Shown in pieces: positions 1-32,807 of a stretch of DNA of 44,728 nt. The first letter of the stretch is position 1; each line of letters starts with the position of its first letter. The notes beneath the pieces were generated by a model. That model saw only the letters and a program-made list of their open reading frames with translations. It was not told the DNA's origin and ran no database searches. Made by a program: the position numbers and the translations under genes. This DNA comes from Escherichia phage ULINTec6: the sequence record MZ997840.1, one strand, 5' to 3'.

Positions 1-39
1 TTCACTCGCTCACGTGTACCTTATGTTATTCCTTGATGG

Positions 40-160
40 ACAGCTTAGGTTAGCCTTAGTAGGATACCTTAGTTAAAGCCTTAGTGCTTAGCTTAGTATC
101 AACTTAGTAGTGTACCTTAGTTAGTCTTAGTGTCAGACCTTAGTGATTGCATAGCTAAAG
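40..160. repeat. Cluster of about 8 short direct repeats containing CTTAGT, spaced 10-15 bp apart, near the left genome end
   Basis: Repeated ccttagt/cttagtg motifs read directly; comparable to short-repeat arrays flanking terminal repeats in T7-like genomes. Confidence 0.5.
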
Positions 161-290
161 CTATAAGATGCTAATAGGTCGCGGTCGGTAGACCGCTAAG
201 AAGAGTAATAGTAATAAGATGCAGTAGGAGGAACACCAGAAACCTAGCCAACCTAGCCTATCCTAGCTCTGTATCTATTGCTTCTCCTTA

Positions 291-306
291 GTCTCACATG
301 TTAGAC
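291..306. repeat. Degenerate copy (GTCTCACATGTTAGAC) of the dispersed 16-bp palindrome
   Basis: 15/16 match to GTCTCACATGTGAGAC found six times elsewhere. Confidence 0.4.
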
Positions 307-373
307 AGCCTAGGTTTGTCTTAGTAGTTGTGACATGTATCACATAAATAATCTATCTTAGTGAAACTTAGTG

Positions 374-402
374 TTGACACAGGCAATCAACAGGTATACA
401 TT
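374..402 (+). promoter_or_regulatory. Host sigma70-type early promoter (TTGACA-17 bp-TACATT)
   Basis: Perfect -35 TTGACA at 374-379, 17-bp spacer, -10 TACATT at 397-402; upstream of the first early ORFs, as for the T7 A promoters. Confidence 0.6.
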
Positions 403-552
403 AGCAATCACTGAGACGGACCTAGCAAGCTGTCTCAGGTTATAAGCAGGAGAATTGATGCGTAAGCCATAGCTAGTGGATGTAGTCGCATGAAGGCTTG
501 AGTAAGGGGCCGTTCAATACCTTCTTCCTCTGGAGACAACGCTTATAACATT

Positions 553-564
553 GCTCTTTAACAA
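553..564 (+). promoter_or_regulatory. Conserved early-region motif GCTCTTTAACAA, copy 1 (candidate RNase III processing site)
   Basis: Identical 12-mer three times in early intergenic spaces, flanked by inverted repeats. Confidence 0.35.
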
Positions 565-623
565 CTTGCTTAGTGTAACCTATGTATGCCGTGGTTAATC
601 ACTTATTGAATGAGGAATTAACT

Positions 624-755
624 ATGAGTTTAGCAACGCTGAGTTATGAAGAAATGTATGCAGCCTACTACAACGCATTAGATGAAGGAGAAGAAGCATT
701 GACCTTCGCTGAGTTTATGGAGGCTTTATGGAGTTTCTATCATGACTCTAAATAA
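624..755 (+). CDS. Small early hypothetical protein (43 aa)
   Basis: ATG with GAGGAA RBS 7 nt upstream; stop overlaps the start of the next ORF (translational coupling); below the ORF-track size cutoff. Confidence 0.3.
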   Translation: MSLATLSYEEMYAAYYNALDEGEEALTFAEFMEALWSFYHDSK

Positions 756-924
756 CCGTGAACTATCCGTTCTCTTCACTCTGTTATGCTACATGATTCG
801 TAACAACGAATTGCTTACAGATGATGAGTTGGCACTATATCACCGCTTTCTTAACGAAGGTTGGACAGATACAGTTAACCATAAACGTGACTTGATGAAG
901 GAGTTAAGCAATGTATCAGCATGA
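742..924 (+). CDS. Early hypothetical protein (60 aa)
   Basis: ORF track; chain of overlapping early ORFs downstream of the host promoter. Confidence 0.45.
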   Translation: MTLNNRELSVLFTLLCYMIRNNELLTDDELALYHRFLNEGWTDTVNHKRDLMKELSNVSA

Positions 925-1135
925 GGTTTTCTTTGAATCAGCTAAAGAAGCTATTCGTTTGCATGATGATATGAAGTTAGCAGATATGAAGGTTGGCTTG
1001 ACCAGCTTCCTGCTGGATTACAACATGGAATATCACCGAGTTACCTTAGTATCTGAGTATGACAACCAAGTCATTACTGAGTATCTAGGCAGTGAAGATT
1101 ACGATTACGATGAAGTAATCACGACAAATCTCTAA
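911..1135 (+). CDS. Early hypothetical acidic protein (74 aa)
   Basis: ORF track; start overlaps the previous stop by 14 nt. Confidence 0.45.
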   Translation: MYQHEVFFESAKEAIRLHDDMKLADMKVGLTSFLLDYNMEYHRVTLVSEYDNQVITEYLGSEDYDYDEVITTNL

Positions 1136-1143
1136 ATTAACTA

Positions 1144-1172
1144 TTGACAACCACGGCATACAAGGCTACATT
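1144..1172 (+). promoter_or_regulatory. Host sigma70-type early promoter (TTGACA-17 bp-TACATT), second copy
   Basis: Same architecture as the promoter at 374-402: TTGACA 1144-1149, 17-bp spacer, TACATT 1167-1172. Confidence 0.6.
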
Positions 1173-1205
1173 AAGCATCAAGACGGCGACGTCTTTAAAC
1201 ATCCC

Positions 1206-1217
1206 GCTCTTTAACAA
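1206..1217 (+). promoter_or_regulatory. Conserved early-region motif GCTCTTTAACAA, copy 2 (candidate RNase III site)
   Basis: Motif lies inside the inverted repeat atcaagac ... gtcttgat. Confidence 0.35.
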
Positions 1218-1261
1218 TCTGGTTTGTGTCTTGATAGGCTTACTAACAAAGGTGAACTATC

Positions 1262-1426
1262 ATGACTAACGCACAACGTAAACGCTATGATGCATTGCAA
1301 GAGAAACTTGCTGTTGCTTATGCCGCTTGGCAAGCTAACACAGATAAGAGCAAACACGATAAACTTTATAGTAAAGTGGTTGCAATTAATGCTAAAATAG
1401 ATAAACTTGTGAATAGTATCTTATAA
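1262..1426 (+). CDS. Small early hypothetical protein (54 aa)
   Basis: ATG preceded by AAAGGTGA RBS; translated by hand to TAA at 1424-1426. Confidence 0.35.
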   Translation: MTNAQRKRYDALQEKLAVAYAAWQANTDKSKHDKLYSKVVAINAKIDKLVNSIL

Positions 1427-1468
1427 GATAGTTGCTGGCATTAGCCAGCCTATCAAGGCACAAGCCAC

Positions 1469-1480
1469 GCTCTTTAACAA
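1469..1480 (+). promoter_or_regulatory. Conserved early-region motif GCTCTTTAACAA, copy 3 (candidate RNase III site)
   Basis: Motif flanked by cctatc ... ggatag inverted repeat. Confidence 0.35.
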
Positions 1481-1575
1481 TATGGATAGAAGCTTCTTAG
1501 TCTGGATAGGTTAAACCTAGGGTATTCTTTTGAGTACCCTATAATGTAACCTAACTAACTAATGAGGATTAAATC

Positions 1576-1905
1576 ATGGAACGCAATGCTAACGCTTACT
1601 ACAATCTTCTGGCTGCAACTGTTGAAGCATTCAACGAGCGCATCAAGTACGATGAGATTCGTGAAGACGATGATTACTCTGATGCACTGCATGAGGTTGT
1701 AGATAGCATGGTGCCAGTTTATTACAGCGAAATCTTTACTGTGATGGCTGCGGATGGTATTGATGTTGATTTTGAAGATGCTGGTTTGATTCCTGATACG
1801 AAGGATGTAACCAAGATTCTACAAGCTCGCATCTATGAAGCTCTTTATAATGATGTACCAAATGACAGCGATGTAGTTTGGTATGAAGGCGAAGAAGAGG
1901 AATAA
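1576..1905 (+). CDS. ocr: Ocr-like anti-restriction protein (T7 gene 0.3 homologue, DNA mimic)
   Basis: 109-aa highly acidic protein; blocks IKYDEIRED, VPVYYSEIFTVMAADGID, FEDAGLIPDTKDV and ILQARIYE closely match T7 Ocr as I recall it; acidic C-terminus. Confidence 0.8.
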   Translation: MERNANAYYNLLAATVEAFNERIKYDEIREDDDYSDALHEVVDSMVPVYYSEIFTVMAADGIDVDFEDAGLIPDTKDVTKILQARIYEALYNDVPNDSDVVWYEGEEEE

Positions 1906-2013
1906 TAAGATGGAAAGGCAATATAACTTCATATTTTCAGACGGTGTGACCTTAAAATGTTCCTTGCGATTTGCACAGATTCGTGAGGAAGTACTAGGAA
2001 CTACATACAAGCT

Positions 2014-2036
2014 ATTTAGCTGACACTATAAGAGAA
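2014..2036 (+). promoter_or_regulatory. Degenerate phage-promoter-like sequence (ATTTAGCTGACACTATAAGAG)
   Basis: Matches the phage promoter consensus except around the start site (TATAAG instead of TATAG); may be weak or non-functional. Confidence 0.3.
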
Positions 2037-2099
2037 GGCTTAACAAGGCGTTACTACGGTAGCGCCTGATTAAACTTTCATTTATTAGGAGTTGAGATT

Positions 2100-2285
2100 A
2101 TGAAAACCTTGATTGGATGCCTGTTGTTGTCTTCACTTGTCCTTGCTTTTGCTGCAAAGGCTGGCTATGACGCTTACAAGATAGAACAAGCTCAGCAAAA
2201 GTGGGCTGAGAAATACACCTTATGCAGTAAGAGTCATACTTATGAGTACTGCAATAAGGCATTAAAACACCTTTGGAGAGAGTAA
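2100..2285 (+). CDS. Small early protein with N-terminal hydrophobic signal/TM segment (61 aa)
   Basis: ORF track; N-terminus MKTLIGCLLLSSLVLAFAA is signal-peptide-like. Confidence 0.4.
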   Translation: MKTLIGCLLLSSLVLAFAAKAGYDAYKIEQAQQKWAEKYTLCSKSHTYEYCNKALKHLWRE

Positions 2286-2346
2286 CTAGCCTATAGCCTG
2301 CCTGTGTGGGCTATGTGATATTTACTTACACTATAAGGTGATTACT

Positions 2347-3231
2347 ATGACTACTGAAAACGTCCTCCTGTCTGTCCGCGAAGCTGCAACCGCTGAGATT
2401 AAGCAACATTTGGATAATATCGGCACTTCTTACATCAAAGTTGGCGCTTGTCTGAATGAATTACGCGGTGATTTCGAAGGTCAAAAAGACTTTTTAGCTT
2501 ATGTAGAATCAGAGTTCGGCATCAAGAAGGCACAATGCTACAAGCTGATGAGTGTAGCCCGTGTCTTTGAAGGAGACGAACGCTTTAAAGGTGTGGCTAT
2601 GCGTGTAATGCTGGCGCTTGTTCCTTTCGCTGATGAAAATATAATCATGGAGAAGGCCGCAGAACTCGCCGCAGATGGCAAGCTGGACACTAACGCCGTA
2701 AACGCTCTGATTGATCCTAAGAAAGAGACAAAGGCTGAGACGGTACAATCTAAGGCTGAGACAGTAAAACCGCAGGAGAACGCGACTGAGGCCGCAGAAT
2801 CACAGGAAATGCAAGCGCCGCAGGTAGTGCCACCCGCGAGCGAGCAGGAGGCCGACGAATCAGCACCGTGGGAAGAGGAAAGCAAGCCTGAAGCACCGAA
2901 GTCCGCGCCGCTGGATAACACGGCTAATACTGAGAATGCCGCTATTGCCGGTCTGCTGGCACAAATTAAGGCACTGACTGAGCAATTACAGGCAGCTAAT
3001 GACCGCATCGCCTCCTTAAGTAGCGCACGCGAAAGCAAGAAGGCAGCCGCGCCTATGCTGCCGCAATTCAAATCTTCCTGCTTCTATGCTCGCTTAGGTT
3101 TAAGCGCCGAGGAGGCAACGAAGAAAACAGCAGTTAACAAGGCACGCCGCGAACTGGTTAAGCTAGGCTATGGTGAAGGCCATGAAGCATGGGCCTTAAT
3201 ATCTGAGGCAGTAGAAGAATTAACTAAGTAA
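2347..3231 (+). CDS. Early hypothetical protein with globular N-terminal domain and low-complexity A/E/K/P/Q-rich C-terminal half
   Basis: ORF track (start adjusted to ATG 2347 after AAGGTG RBS); occupies the position of T7 gene 0.7 upstream of RNAP but shows no kinase motifs. Confidence 0.55.
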   Translation: MTTENVLLSVREAATAEIKQHLDNIGTSYIKVGACLNELRGDFEGQKDFLAYVESEFGIKKAQCYKLMSVARVFEGDERFKGVAMRVMLALVPFADENIIMEKAAELAADGKLDTNAVNALIDPKKETKAETVQSKAETVKPQENATEAAESQEMQAPQVVPPASEQEADESAPWEEESKPEAPKSAPLDNTANTENAAIAGLLAQIKALTEQLQAANDRIASLSSARESKKAAAPMLPQFKSSCFYARLGLSAEEATKKTAVNKARRELVKLGYGEGHEAWALISEAVEELTK

Positions 3232-3294
3232 CCTTATCGGTGGCATCTTCTTAGGTGTCACCTATTAAGGTTTCTTTCACTAGGAGTAAACAAG

Positions 3295-5922
3295 ATGCAA
3301 GACCTACACGCTATTCAACTTCAACTTGAAGAAGAAATGTTTAACGGCGGTATCCGTCGCTTTGAAGCGGACCAACAACGCCAGATTGCATCCGGTAATG
3401 AATCAGACACGGCATGGAATCGCCGCTTATTGTCCGAACTAATCGCACCTATGGCTGAAGGTATTCAGGCATACAAGGAAGAGTATGAAGGTAAAAGAGG
3501 CCGTGCACCGCGTGCATTGGCTTTCATTAACTGCGTAGAAAACGAAGTGGCAGCATATATCACGATGAAAATCGTTATGGATATGCTGAATACAGACGTT
3601 ACCTTACAAGCTATCGCTATGAATGTAGCGGACCGCATCGAGGACCAAGTACGTTTTAGCAAGCTGGAAGGTCACGCAGCTAAGTACTTTGAGAAAGTAA
3701 AGAAGTCACTTAAGGCGAGCAAGACGAAATCTTATCGTCATGCACACAACGTAGCGGTAGTGGCTGAGAAGTCTGTAGCTGACCGCGACGCGGATTTCTC
3801 CCGCTGGGAAGCATGGCCTAAAGATACCTTGCTGCAAATCGGTATGACCTTGCTCGAAATCTTGGAGAATAGCGTATTCTTCAATGGTCAACCTGTCTTC
3901 CTTCGTACCTTGCGCACTAACGGCGGCAAACATGGTATCTACTACTTACAGACTAGTGAGCACGTAGGCGAGTGGATTACAGCGTTCAAAGAGCACGTAG
4001 CACAACTAAGCCCAGCTTATGCACCTTGCGTTATCCCTCCGCGCCCTTGGGTGTCTCCTTTTAATGGTGGGTTTCACACTGAGAAGGTGGCTAGCCGCAT
4101 CCGCCTTGTTAAAGGCAACCGTGAGCACGTCCGTAAACTGACCAAAAAGCAGATGCCAGCAGTTTACAAGGCCGTTAACGCTTTGCAGGCGACTAAATGG
4201 CAGGTTAACAAGGAAGTATTGCAGGTGGTAGAGGACGTTATACGTCTCGACCTCGGCTATGGTGTACCTTCCTTTAAACCACTAATCGACCGCGAGAACA
4301 AACCGGCTAATCCCGTGCCGTTAGAATTTCAGCACCTTCGCGGACGTGAACTGAAAGAAATGCTTACGCCGGAACAGTGGCAATCCTTCATTAACTGGAA
4401 AGGTGAATGCACCAAGCTGTACACCGCAGAAACTAAGCGTGGCAGCAAGTCGGCGGCTACGGTCCGCATGGTTGGTCAGGCCCGTAAATATAGCCAGTTC
4501 GACGCAATCTACTTCGTGTATGCACTGGACAGCCGCAGCCGCGTCTACGCGCAATCTAGCACTCTCTCACCGCAATCAAACGACTTAGGCAAGGCACTCC
4601 TACGGTTTACCGAAGGGCAGCCGCTAAATAGCGCTGAGGCGCTTAAGTGGTTTTTGGTGAACGGAGCTAATAACTGGGGTTGGGATAAGAAAACTTTCGA
4701 CGTGCGCACCGCTAACGTGCTGGACGGCGAGTTTCAAGACATGTGCCGCGACATTGCAGCGGATCCTCTGACCTTCACTCAATGGGTAAATGCCGATTCC
4801 CCTTATGGCTTCCTTGCATGGTGCTTTGAATATGCGCGTTATCTGGATGCACTGGATGAAGGCACGCAAGACCAATTCATGACGCACCTCCCAGTCCATC
4901 AAGATGGTAGTTGTTCTGGTATCCAGCACTACAGTGCTATGCTACGCGATGCAGTAGGTGCGAAAGCAGTAAACCTTAAGCCCTCTGACTCCCCTCAAGA
5001 TATTTATGGTGCCGTTGCGCAGGTAGTAATTCAGAAGAATTATGCATACATGAATGCAGAGGATGCGGAAACCTTCACTTCTGGCAGCGTGACTTTAACA
5101 GGTGCGGAACTGCGTAGCATGGCTAGTGCGTGGGATATGATAGGAATCACTCGCGGCCTGACCAAAAAGCCCGTAATGACACTACCTTACGGCAGCACAC
5201 GTCTAACCTGCCGTGAGTCAGTGATTGATTATATCGTTGATTTAGAAGAAAAAGAGGCCCAACGGGCTATTGCGGAAGGGCGTACCGCCAACCCTGTACA
5301 TCCTTTTGATAATGACCGTAAGGACAGCCTGACACCTAGCGCAGCTTATAACTATATGACAGCTCTAATCTGGCCTTCTATCTCGGAAGTGGTTAAAGCT
5401 CCTATAGTGGCAATGAAAATGATTCGTCAGCTTGCACGTTTCGCAGCTAAAAGAAACGAAGGCTTAGAATATCCCTTACCAACTGGCTTCATCTTGCAAC
5501 AAAAGATAATGGCTACCGATATGCTCCGCGTATCCACTTGCTTGATGGGTGAAATCAAGATGAGTCTCCAGATTGAAACAGATGTAGTTGATGAAACGGC
5601 AATGATGGGTGCGGCTGCTCCTAACTTCGTCCACGGTCACGATGCTAGCCACCTGATTCTGACTGTATGTGACCTAGTGGATAAAGGTATTACATCCATT
5701 GCAGTCATCCATGATTCTTTCGGTACTCATGCAGGGCGTACCGCAGACCTGCGGGATAGCTTAAGGGGAGAAATGGTTAAGATGTATCAAAACCATAATG
5801 CCCTGCAAAACCTGCTAGATGTGCACGAAGAGCGTTGGTTAGTAGACACCGGAATCCAAGTACCAAAGCAAGGGGAGTTTGACCTTAACGAAATCTTAGT
5901 TTCAGACTATTGTTTCGCATAA
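3295..5922 (+). CDS. Phage single-subunit DNA-dependent RNA polymerase (T7 gene 1 family)
   Basis: 875 aa; C-terminus ...[12 protein letters not shown] matches T7 RNAP ...LRDILESDFAFA; [18 protein letters not shown] and IHDSFGTH catalytic motifs present. Confidence 0.97.
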
Positions 5923-5930
5923 TATTAATA

Positions 5931-5965
5931 GGCCATTCCTTCGGGAGTGGCCTTTCCTTTTACCT
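5931..5965 (+). terminator. Intrinsic terminator after the RNAP gene (9-bp stem, UUCG loop, U-rich tail)
   Basis: ggccattcc-ttcg-ggagtggcc followed by tttccttttacc, immediately after the RNAP stop; analogous to the T7 early terminator. Confidence 0.65.
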
Positions 5966-5995: not shown

Positions 5996-6011
5996 GTCTC
6001 ACATGTGAGAC
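5996..6011. repeat. 16-bp perfect palindrome GTCTCACATGTGAGAC (copy 1), immediately upstream of a phage promoter
   Basis: Read directly; one of six near-identical dispersed copies. Confidence 0.8.
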
Positions 6012-6186: not shown

Positions 6187-6202
6187 GTCTCACATGTGAG
6201 AC
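6187..6202. repeat. 16-bp palindrome GTCTCACATGTGAGAC (copy 2)
   Basis: Read directly; again followed by a promoter-like sequence. Confidence 0.8.
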
Positions 6203-6403: not shown

Positions 6404-7557
6404 ATGGCTATTATTAATAACATCCCATGTCCTCAATGTCAGAAGAATGGACACGATAAATCAGGCAACCACCTTATGATATTCGAGGATGGTGCTGGGT
6501 ACTGTAACCGTGGTCACTTCCATGATAATGGCAGACCTTACTACCATAAGCCTGAAGGGGGCATCGAGATAACCGAGTTGCCTATTACTGGCAATATCAA
6601 ATATACACCTTCCCAGTTTAAAGAGATGGAGAAGGAAGGGAAGATTAGCGACCCTAAGCTACGCGCCATCGCACTTGGTGGTATGCGTATGAAAGACCGT
6701 TGGGAGGTTATGAATGAGCAAGAAAGGGCAGACCAAGAAACAGAGTGGAAACTTGATGTTGAATGGTTCCTCACGCTTAAGCGTAAGAATCTTGTTTCCC
6801 GACACATTCGCGGCGACATTTGCGCATTGTATGATGTACGGGTCGGACACGATGAAGAAGGTAGAGTCTCACGGCATTACTATCCACGCTTCGAAAAAGG
6901 TGAGCTAGTAGGCGCTAAGTGTCGCACATTACCTAAAGACTTTAAGTTTGGTCATTTAGGTAAACTATTTGGTATGCAAGATCTTTTCGGTATGAATACT
7001 TTGTCTCACGTGTTAGACAAGGGAAGACGAAAGGATTGCTTGCTTATTGTCGGCGGCGAACTGGATGCACTAGCAGCACAGCAAATGCTCCTTGATTCTG
7101 CCAAGGGTACTAAGTGGGAAGGCCAGCCTTACCATGTATGGTCTGTCAATAAAGGTGAGTCTTGCCTTGAAGAGATAGTACAGAACCGTGAACACATCGC
7201 CCAATTTAAGAAGATTATATGGGGTTTTGATGGAGATGAGGTAGGGCAGAAGCAGAATCAGCAAGCGGCTCGCCTGTTTCCTGGCAAATCCTATATCCTT
7301 GAGTACCCTTCTGGTTGCAAAGATGCCAACAAGGCATTGATGGCTGGCAAGGCTAAAGAGTTTGTTGATGCATGGTTTAATGCCAAGTCATCTGATGAAG
7401 TCTTTGGTAGCCAGATTAAATCTATCGCATCTCAAAGGGATAAGCTCAAGGCTGCACGTCCAGAGCAAGGACTATCATGGCCTTGGCCTAAGCTGAACAA
7501 GGTAACGCTAGGTATTCGTAAGAACCAACTTATCATTGTAGGCGCAGGCTCTGGCGT
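6404..7557 (+). CDS. Primase-helicase (T7 gene 4 family), exon 1: zinc-ribbon, TOPRIM primase and start of the helicase P-loop (GAGSGV)
   Basis: IPCPQCQKNGHDKSGNHL...YCNRGHFH zinc ribbon and LLIVGGELDALA / FDGDEVGQ / CKDANKALM TOPRIM motifs match T7 gp4; the reading frame hits a stop 7 codons after GAGSGV. Confidence 0.85.
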
Positions 7558-9834: not shown

Positions 9835-9850
9835 GTCTCACATGTGAGAC
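9835..9850. repeat. 16-bp palindrome GTCTCACATGTGAGAC (copy 3), extended stem gcttgtctcaca/tgtgagacaggc, followed by TCTTATT
   Basis: Read directly; hairpin plus U-rich tail is terminator-like. Confidence 0.8.
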
Positions 9851-11050: not shown

Positions 11051-11066
11051 GTCTCACGTGTGAGAC
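11051..11066. repeat. Palindrome variant GTCTCACGTGTGAGAC (copy 4), extended stem ggttgtctcac/gtgagacagcc, followed by TTTCATCAT
   Basis: Read directly. Confidence 0.7.
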
Positions 11067-16198: not shown

Positions 16199-16214
16199 GT
16201 CTCACACGTGAGAC
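16199..16214. repeat. Palindrome variant GTCTCACACGTGAGAC (copy 5), just upstream of a phage promoter
   Basis: Read directly. Confidence 0.7.
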
Positions 16215-32791: not shown

Positions 32792-32807
32792 GTCTCACAT
32801 GTGAGAC
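32792..32807. repeat. 16-bp palindrome GTCTCACATGTGAGAC (copy 6), extended stem, followed by TCTTTAT
   Basis: Read directly; between two internal virion protein genes. Confidence 0.8.

Follow-up and report, generated by a model that had tools for sequence, protein, structure and literature searches.

The early region of Escherichia phage ULINTec6 (sequence record MZ997840.1; "the window" here is the whole stretch analyzed, 44,728 nucleotides of one strand read 5' to 3') carries three exact copies of a 12-mer, GCTCTTTAACAA, which match the boxA element of bacterial ribosomal RNA (rrn) operons. The first two copies are each followed by a sequence that can pair with a complementary arm located beyond one or more small genes, shortly before the next copy. 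Our reading of this arrangement, to which we assign a probability of roughly 0.7, is that the phage uses Nus-dependent antitermination of the rrn type on the host RNA polymerase, coupled to RNA processing, in a modular early region that mimics an operon.

Over its first 3 kb, the window is 90 to 95% identical to phages K1E, K1-5 and many other members of Vectrevirus, and SP6 is a more distant match. ULINTec6 is thus an SP6-group podovirus (Autographiviridae, Molineuxvirinae; Vectrevirus). At the left end of such genomes, the host RNA polymerase transcribes until the phage's own polymerase has been made.

The repeated 12-mer and its relation to boxA

All three copies of GCTCTTTAACAA lie on the + strand and between genes, and no further copy exists on either strand of the 44.7 kb. 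The expectation by chance was 0.01 exact copies per shuffled window, and none of 100 shuffles contained three, which bears out the original prediction that an identical 12-mer recurs at 553, 1206 and 1469. When up to two mismatches were allowed, six matches were found against 5.4 expected. Since this is the chance level, only the exact copies matter. Their positions, together with those of the predicted host promoters, are as follows:

374–402, + strand: predicted host (sigma-70-type) early promoter P1, TTGACA-17-TACATT, with 10 of 12 consensus matches and a predicted start at about 409; also found in relatives
553–564, + strand: boxA-1 (GCTCTTTAACAA), about 144 nt past the P1 start, in an untranslated leader of about 145 nt
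1144–1172, + strand: predicted host-type promoter P2, TTGACA-17-TACATT, with a predicted start at about 1179; kept across the group
1206–1217, + strand: boxA-2 (GCTCTTTAACAA), about 27 nt past the P2 start
1469–1480, + strand: boxA-3 (GCTCTTTAACAA), upstream of the ocr gene

The 12-mer is identical to the boxA in the rrnB leader of Escherichia coli K-12, which lies just past that operon's promoter P2, with a hairpin before it and a GT-rich boxC after it. All three copies fit the gammaproteobacterial BoxA consensus GYTCTTTAANA (PMC5725501). The exact 12-mer is also found in phage T7 at nt 813 to 824, after promoters A1 to A3 and before gene 0.3, and it is common in other phage contigs, both T7-like and T3-like, as well as in lambdoid prophages, next to cI. 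A blastn search of all complete E. coli genomes with 81 nt around copy 2 gave no match, since nothing beyond the 12-mer is shared. Judging from these sequence matches, the three 12-mers are very probably rrn-type boxA elements, an identification that we hold with more confidence than the overall mechanism. The earlier suggestion that they might be translational elements does not agree with their identity to the rrnB boxA and to the early boxA of T7, an antitermination element.

The three copies come after the predicted sigma-70-like promoters and before the first promoter core for the phage polymerase (2021–2032), in the part of the genome that only the host RNA polymerase can transcribe. They had been described as each lying just downstream of a small early open reading frame (ORF). 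This is the case for copies 2 and 3, found 70 and 42 nt past the stop codons of ORFs 911–1135 and 1262–1426, respectively, but copy 1 has no convincing ORF before it and sits in the untranslated leader of P1.

We compared 27 related early regions, including those of SP6, BP12B, Klebsiella phages, Pantoea phage Nifs112 and Pectobacterium phage PhiM1. In all 27 of these loci boxA was invariant, present on the sense strand only and in one to four copies per early region, while the flanks diverged. Degenerate additional forms were seen in K1E, with a fourth copy carrying a 1-nt insertion (GCTCTTTTAACAA; L004, ~2238–2250), and in SP6, with a third copy that reads GATCTTTAACAA and is off consensus (L003, 1536). 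A variant in BP12B, GTTCTTTAACAA (L005, 1466), is still within the consensus. In Zindervirus, the last boxA before ocr seems to be the least constrained.

In a global fold of the 409–1600 transcript, the boxAs were predicted to be mostly single-stranded, with a mean probability of being unpaired of 0.57 to 0.73, compared with 0.38 transcript-wide. In the minimum free energy (MFE) structure, the 3' 7 to 9 nt of each boxA were unpaired and the copies sat between helices. The fold thus contradicts the original placement of the 12-mers inside hairpins.

Long-range helices between the repeats

We searched for the best RNA duplex that the 35 nt after each boxA could form within 6 kb, with shuffled flanks as a control. 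Two long-range helices, stem I and stem II, were found, their 5' arms beginning 2 to 3 nt past boxA-1 and boxA-2. These arms and the genes they enclose are as follows:

567–596, + strand: 5' strand of stem I ("leader" arm), pairing with 1149–1177
624–1135, + strand: cargo of unit I, three small ORFs (624–755, 742–924 and 911–1135) in PHROG families without known function
1149–1177, + strand: 3' strand of stem I ("trailer" arm), about 580 nt downstream, coinciding with the spacer and -10 element of P2
1220–1240, + strand: 5' strand of stem II, pairing with 1447–1467
1262–1426, + strand: cargo of unit II, a 54-aa ORF of the K1E gp2.8 family
1447–1467, + strand: 3' strand of stem II, ending 1 nt before boxA-3

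Stem I comprises 30 bp, with a free energy (dG) of -43.8 against a shuffled best of -25.1 +/- 2.2, and encloses the three small ORFs of unit I, for which no Pfam match was obtained. Stem II comprises 21 bp, with a dG of -39.5 to -40.7 against a shuffled best of -25.6 +/- 2.3, and encloses the 54-aa ORF. Both helices were also present in the MFE structure when the 1.2-kb transcript from 409 to 1600 was folded without bias, with pair probabilities of about 1.00.

Pair conservation was counted over 13 distinct sequences per alignment. Pseudomonas phage Achelous, which MAFFT had put out of register, was excluded from these counts and treated as an independent case. Pairing was maintained at 97.1% in stem I (alignment A3) and at 96.6% in stem II (alignment A1), and changes on both sides affected 10 of the 30 pairs and 8 of the 21 pairs, respectively; in neither case did any of 500 column shuffles match the observed values. 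Sliding the registers by 1 to 3 columns left only 23 to 44% pairing in the two alignments. A matched 2-nt deletion in both arms was observed in unit 3 of Klebsiella phage H01. G·U combinations outnumbered A·C combinations in the helices 43 to 7, indicating a constraint on the + strand RNA and not on the DNA or the opposite strand. Both classes of helix were found in every relative, with the 3' strand located 1 to 6 nt (stem II class) or 12 to 29 nt (promoter class) before the next boxA.

Achelous provides a further instance of the stem I design, with arms of unrelated sequence: a helix of about 31 bp (dG -57.2) connects two exact boxAs (L098, 1088–1568), and its 3' strand is a TTGACA-17-TATCAT promoter. 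As a control, we applied the same search to rrnB, where the bases immediately after boxA paired with bases 6 nt past the 3' end of 16S rRNA (dG -57.6); the rrnB spacer boxA is at position 2323 of L151. This matching layout gives the phage units the anatomy of an rrn operon, namely, helix, boxA, leader strand, product, trailer strand and next boxA. That the modeled stems I and II exist is, in our estimation, more probable than the overall mechanism.

A long-range partner is no general property of phage boxAs, since in a scan of IMG/VR it stood out for just 12 of 78 unique boxA flanks (median excess, -1.3 kcal/mol). The pattern used for that scan, GCTCTTTAACAANNTGG, forces TGG, and the scan is therefore uninformative on the bases that follow boxA. 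In the IMG/VR contigs L046 (99 kb; 3208–3790), L093, L143, L104 and L054, the boxA 3' flank pairs strongly with sequence 500 to 650 nt downstream (dG -30 to -39, against about -20 when shuffled); several of these contigs belong to the lambdoid group and have the flank TCTGGATATCC.

The original prediction had considered the 12-mer to be part of local stem-loops cut by RNase III, as in T7, or of early intrinsic terminators. There is indeed a local inverted repeat around copy 2 (ATCAAGAC at 1177–1184 and GTCTTGAT at 1228–1235), and hairpins occur near every copy. However, the 12-mer itself is predicted to be mostly unpaired and does not differ from the NusB/E site of rrn, which is single-stranded. 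The repeat shows no compensatory changes, has an A·C mismatch in K1E and lacks a partner in the P2-leader phages with the other flank. Its 3' half belongs to the 21-bp covarying helix, in which the conserved partner of GTCTTGAT is 1447–1467, 215 nt downstream, and not the nearby ATCAAGAC. We thus dropped the local repeat as a functional structure in favor of the long-range helix. Neither is there a hairpin with a U-run at or next to any copy, as a terminator would have. We regard an RNase III stem-loop or terminator role of the 12-mer as extremely improbable. The comparison with T7-like RNase III sites probably does apply to the neighbors of the 12-mer, that is, to the covarying helices of 21 to 30 bp after boxA-1 and boxA-2, which by their modeled length and regularity are plausible RNase III substrates, and to a predicted hairpin after boxA-3. 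The latter and the other RNA structures around the boxAs are as follows:

411–438, + strand: 5'-terminal hairpin of the P1 transcript (CUGAGACGG/CUGUCUCAG), in both the local and the global MFE structures
439–549, + strand: closed structured leader domain with a 9-bp closing stem (439–447/541–549), ending 3 nt before boxA-1
1180–1195, + strand: boxB-like hairpin AAGACG-GCGA-CGUCUU with a GNRA loop, at the 5' end of the P2 transcript and 10 nt before boxA-2; in the global MFE structure
1434–1449, + strand: small hairpin GCUGGC-AUUA-GCCAGC, directly adjoining the stem II 3' strand at its inner end
1493–1567, + strand: two-tier local hairpin between boxA-3 and ocr (MFE -33.6 kcal/mol, z = -4.62)

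A conserved local hairpin with an internal loop between genes, as expected of a T7-type local RNase III site, was not found at the 12-mer, but the separate hairpin at 1493–1567 fits this description. The AGGUUA/UAACCU stem of this hairpin is invariant in 11 relatives and its upper stem covaries, while the lower stem includes, and thereby sequesters, the ocr Shine-Dalgarno sequence. As modeled, it stands out as the leading candidate for a local RNase III site of the T7 type, at the position of R0.3.

Each boxA is preceded by a helix: the 439–549 domain for boxA-1, the 1180–1195 hairpin for boxA-2, and the stem II 3' strand with the 1434–1449 hairpin for boxA-3. The leader domain occupies the position of a boxB. 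According to RNAalifold analysis of seven diverged phages, 10 of its 22 predicted pairs are compensatory, with both sides changed; the domain consists of the closing stem, which covaries, and inner hairpins. The leader as a whole (405–600) was not unusually stable (z = 0.25), and a scan of 1–3000 with Rfam 15 at E <= 10 gave chance-level microRNA matches only and no family for the leader domain. The boxB-like hairpin is optional, as SP6, BP12B and the Klebsiella relatives lack it, and the 1434–1449 stem is either kept or flipped in relatives (e.g., CCAGCU-UAAU-AGCUGG). Klebsiella, Salmonella and Pantoea relatives have kept the DNA of the leader between P1 and boxA-1 despite different neighboring genes. 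Phages of the K1-5 type have a different leader with a covarying hairpin of its own (GGUGC-UGAG-GCACC versus AGCAC-UGAG-GUGCU).

Cassettes and other features of the early region

Arms of the stem II type were found around 23 cassettes that encode 16 distinct proteins from 11 unrelated families. The complete boxA-arm-ORF-arm-boxA unit II (window positions 1205–1487) recurs with 95% identity in the T7-like phage K30 (L152, 668–933; Studiervirinae), where it is inserted exactly at the place of the single boxA of its relatives and has a boxA at both borders. From its sequence, this is an apparent cassette transfer between phage subfamilies. In an Edwardsiella phage, the same arms surround a different gene. 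Given the 11 cargo families, the K30 insertion, the different gene in the Edwardsiella phage and the similar design in Achelous, we conclude that the boxA-arm junctions behave as portable cassette borders.

The same observations could mean that the junctions are mainly DNA-level recombination joints that spread cassettes, with arms that have no role in RNA: identical arms do flank unrelated cargo throughout the 23 cassettes, a whole unit is inserted in K30 precisely at boxA, and the Edwardsiella phage does have a different gene within these arms. What such joints do not account for are the compensatory changes in the arms, including the matched deletions in H01, and the unrelated arm pair that has the same geometry in the Pseudomonas phage. 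Moreover, the preference for G·U over A·C by 43 to 7 is not predicted by any DNA-level or strand-neutral function. We consider a purely recombinational role of the arms unlikely. A role as cassette borders is nonetheless compatible with function at the RNA level, as an added property and not a replacement.

The gene after boxA-3 encodes Ocr (PF08684, E = 2e-31), and the phage RNA polymerase gene comes after a 297-aa ORF ending at 3231. The first strong site of the intrinsic-terminator type, with a G+C-rich hairpin and a U-run, follows the polymerase gene and probably marks where the early unit transcribed by the host polymerase ends:

5930–5953, + strand: strong intrinsic-terminator-like hairpin directly after the phage RNA polymerase gene, with a 10-bp stem, six G-C pairs and a U-rich tail

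The first promoter cores of the phage-polymerase type are at 2021–2032 and 2326–2337. These promoters (TGACACTATAAG and TTACACTATAAG cores; 2015–2040 and 2320–2340) precede the very gene that encodes the phage RNA polymerase, and by their sequence they could allow the phage polymerase, once some has been made, to amplify its own gene. At the left end, before P1, the interval 40–370 is dense in short repeats of the CTTAGT/CCTTAGT type, recalling the arrays that adjoin the terminal repeat in T7-like genomes. A perfect 16-nt palindrome, GTCTCACATGTGAGAC, and its close variants occupy eight sites (four exact), against 0.18 expected:

291–306, 5996–6011, 6187–6202, 7003–7018, 9835–9850, 11051–11066, 16199–16214 and 32792–32807: GTCTCACATGTGAGAC palindrome and variants

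Two of these copies are right behind the terminator that follows the RNA polymerase gene. The palindrome could bind a protein, form a hairpin or belong to a promoter or terminator context.

Proposed mechanism and comparison with known systems

According to the mechanism that we propose, boxA in the nascent early RNA would bind the host NusB-NusE(S10) dimer, around which an antitermination complex of the ribosomal type, including NusA, NusG and SuhB, would assemble on the polymerase. The modified polymerase would be Rho-resistant, would pause less and would move faster across the ~5.5 kb to the terminator (~5950) past the phage RNA polymerase gene. In T7-like phages, early host transcription also pulls the genome into the cell, and speed would therefore matter. 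In the model for rRNA, a boxA held on the polymerase by NusB retains the leader strand at the RNA exit up to the point where the trailer comes out (PMC10250234). Similarly, a tethered phage boxA would hold the 5' arm near the RNA exit channel, and the helix would snap shut once the 3' arm emerged. RNase III would then cut the helices of 21 to 30 bp, an event that we consider fairly probable by analogy; the cut would turn each small-gene unit into a separate message whose ends are paired, and it would also remove the upstream boxA from the nascent chain. Such a removal may explain the presence of another boxA after each trailer arm and internal promoter: the new copy would reload the complex after every internal promoter and every point of RNase III severing.

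Several points weigh against this mechanism. Nus-factor binding, antitermination, elongation speed and RNase III cleavage are attributed to ULINTec6 by analogy, and P1 and P2 are consensus predictions only. The third SP6 copy, GATCTTTAACAA, departs from the consensus, and so not every copy need function. The covariation is drawn largely from few lineages, with the double changes in stem I coming mostly from two Klebsiella phages, and the column-shuffle control ignores the relatedness of the sequences. The flank of boxA-3 had no long-range partner in the duplex search (-19 to -25 kcal/mol, within the shuffled range), and no significant long-range partner was found in T7-like phages and contigs with one boxA; the helix is therefore not obligatory for boxA function. 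Finally, boxA-2 ends 44 nt before its ORF, a distance at which repression is possible, as for suhB (PMC5725501).

BoxA near a start codon can indeed repress via Rho, as shown for E. coli suhB (2017, PMC5725501). By this precedent, the phage boxAs might be Nus-dependent repressors or attenuators that limit early gene dosage through an occluded translation start and Rho termination, as in the suhB 5' untranslated region. BoxA is repressive in the suhB context, and the spacing of boxA-2 falls inside the 50-nt window of that study (PMC5725501). On the other hand, ocr and the gene for the phage RNA polymerase can be reached only by a polymerase that has passed all three copies. Since read-through is required, termination at these sites would be self-defeating. 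Moreover, the start codons that follow boxA-1 and boxA-3 are 59 and 95 nt from the ends of these copies, suhB has no rrn-like leader-trailer geometry, and T7 genetics, as described in PMC3709561, point to antitermination. We thus give little credence to repression as the role of the boxAs. We also considered that abundant early RNAs carrying boxA may act as decoys, titrating NusB, NusE and SuhB off the host rrn operons and thereby aiding host shut-off. Several perfect sites of the high-affinity type are indeed present behind strong predicted promoters, and cutting by RNase III would free short boxA-bearing fragments. However, T7 manages with one copy, and the tight coupling of boxA to arm and promoters is better explained by action in cis, making a decoy role very unlikely.

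Antitermination coupled to processing, as proposed here for ULINTec6, may extend further. Only tentatively, and with the odds somewhat against it, we suggest that the early regions of SP6-like and several other Autographiviridae are at once miniature rRNA operons and sets of portable cassette borders. Iterated boxAs would recruit the ribosomal complex, speed genome entry and chaperone helices that RNase III cuts, and their junctions would exchange host-takeover and anti-defense genes across subfamilies, in phages of Escherichia, Salmonella, Klebsiella, Pectobacterium and Edwardsiella and, by analogy, Pseudomonas.

T7 already provides a known early boxA within this phage supergroup, and given the established antitermination there, the motif alone is ordinary. 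In the searchable literature, which excluded the primary genome papers and Savalia 2010, we found no paper linking boxA to phages of the SP6/K1-5/K1E type and no description of the triplication, the coupling of boxA to a covarying helix, the promoter as trailer strand or the variable cargo. The combined operon-like modular arrangement thus appears to be undescribed, with an earlier mention possible in Dobbins 2004, Scholl 2004, Pajunen 2001 or Savalia 2010. What may matter about it is that a lytic phage appears to copy the full logic of an rRNA operon for mRNAs as short as 160 to 780 nt. This offers a compact and genetically tractable system for asking whether the antitermination complex physically brings leader to trailer and so drives cotranscriptional RNase III processing. 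It also suggests a reason why fast, Rho-proof host transcription could be of value to phages in which genome entry is thought to depend on that transcription. Identical junctions with at least 11 unrelated genes, together with the K30 transfer, point to a cassette-exchange mechanism for early genes. As early genes house anti-restriction and host-takeover functions, the junctions would help to find such genes and to engineer phages.

Among known systems, the promoter-early stem-loops (PeSL) of T4-type phages and the "morons" of lambdoid phages are mobile regulatory cassettes. They share with the present units short conserved regulatory flanks around small variable early genes and an apparent shuffling between genomes. 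Here, in contrast, the flanks consist of boxA and complementary arms that pair across the unit and not of a promoter and a terminator stem-loop. The suhB BoxA also resides in an mRNA leader and not in rRNA, and it recruits the same factors. It represses its own gene through Rho, whereas the logic of the phage genome needs read-through.

In the lambda nut site (boxA followed by boxB, with N protein), boxA and host Nus factors likewise make the host polymerase resistant to termination, and the lambdoid prophage contigs with the exact 12-mer next to cI are many. The order in ULINTec6 differs and is rrn-like, with helices before boxA, and the phage is strictly lytic. No early protein matched annotated antiterminator families in profile searches, which small N-like proteins could escape. 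Unlike lambda nut, a full rrn-type boxA alone suffices for complex formation (PMC10250234).

For T7, of the same family Autographiviridae, PMC3709561, citing Savalia et al. 2010, describes the early-region boxA as an antitermination element and reports that boxA mutations make Gp2 dispensable, which is read there as an effect of boxA-antiterminated host transcription. The exact 12-mer lies between host promoters and the ocr gene in both phages. Since Ocr is encoded after boxA-3, this copy corresponds in position to the one boxA of T7, which precedes gene 0.3, and boxA-3 with the local hairpin at 1493–1567 matches the boxA/R0.3 layout of T7. The two phages differ in that T7 has one boxA and RNase III sites in local hairpins (R0.3 to R1.3), while ULINTec6 has three boxAs, of which two connect to long-range helices with genes between their arms.

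The most extensive parallel is that with the E. coli rrn operon, where boxA is necessary and sufficient for formation of the rrn transcription antitermination complex (rrnTAC), boxC lies within the 5' strand of the leader-trailer helix cleaved by RNase III, and a second boxA set precedes 23S (PMC10250234). The phage units differ from this operon in enclosing one to three small protein genes (163 to 781 nt) and not rRNA, and in having the arm 2 to 3 nt after boxA, compared with 18 to 19 nt between boxA and boxC in Enterobacteriaceae. One of the trailer arms is at the same time a sigma-70 promoter, none of the arms is homologous in sequence to rrn, and cleavage and Nus binding in the phage are proposed by analogy. 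Common to both are the identical boxA 12-mer, the order of helix and then boxA, the 5' strand of a long-range helix right after boxA, helices of comparable length (21 to 30 bp in the phage and 25 to 40 bp for the rrn leader-trailer) and a further boxA after the trailer strand, corresponding to the spacer boxA before 23S (PMC10250234).

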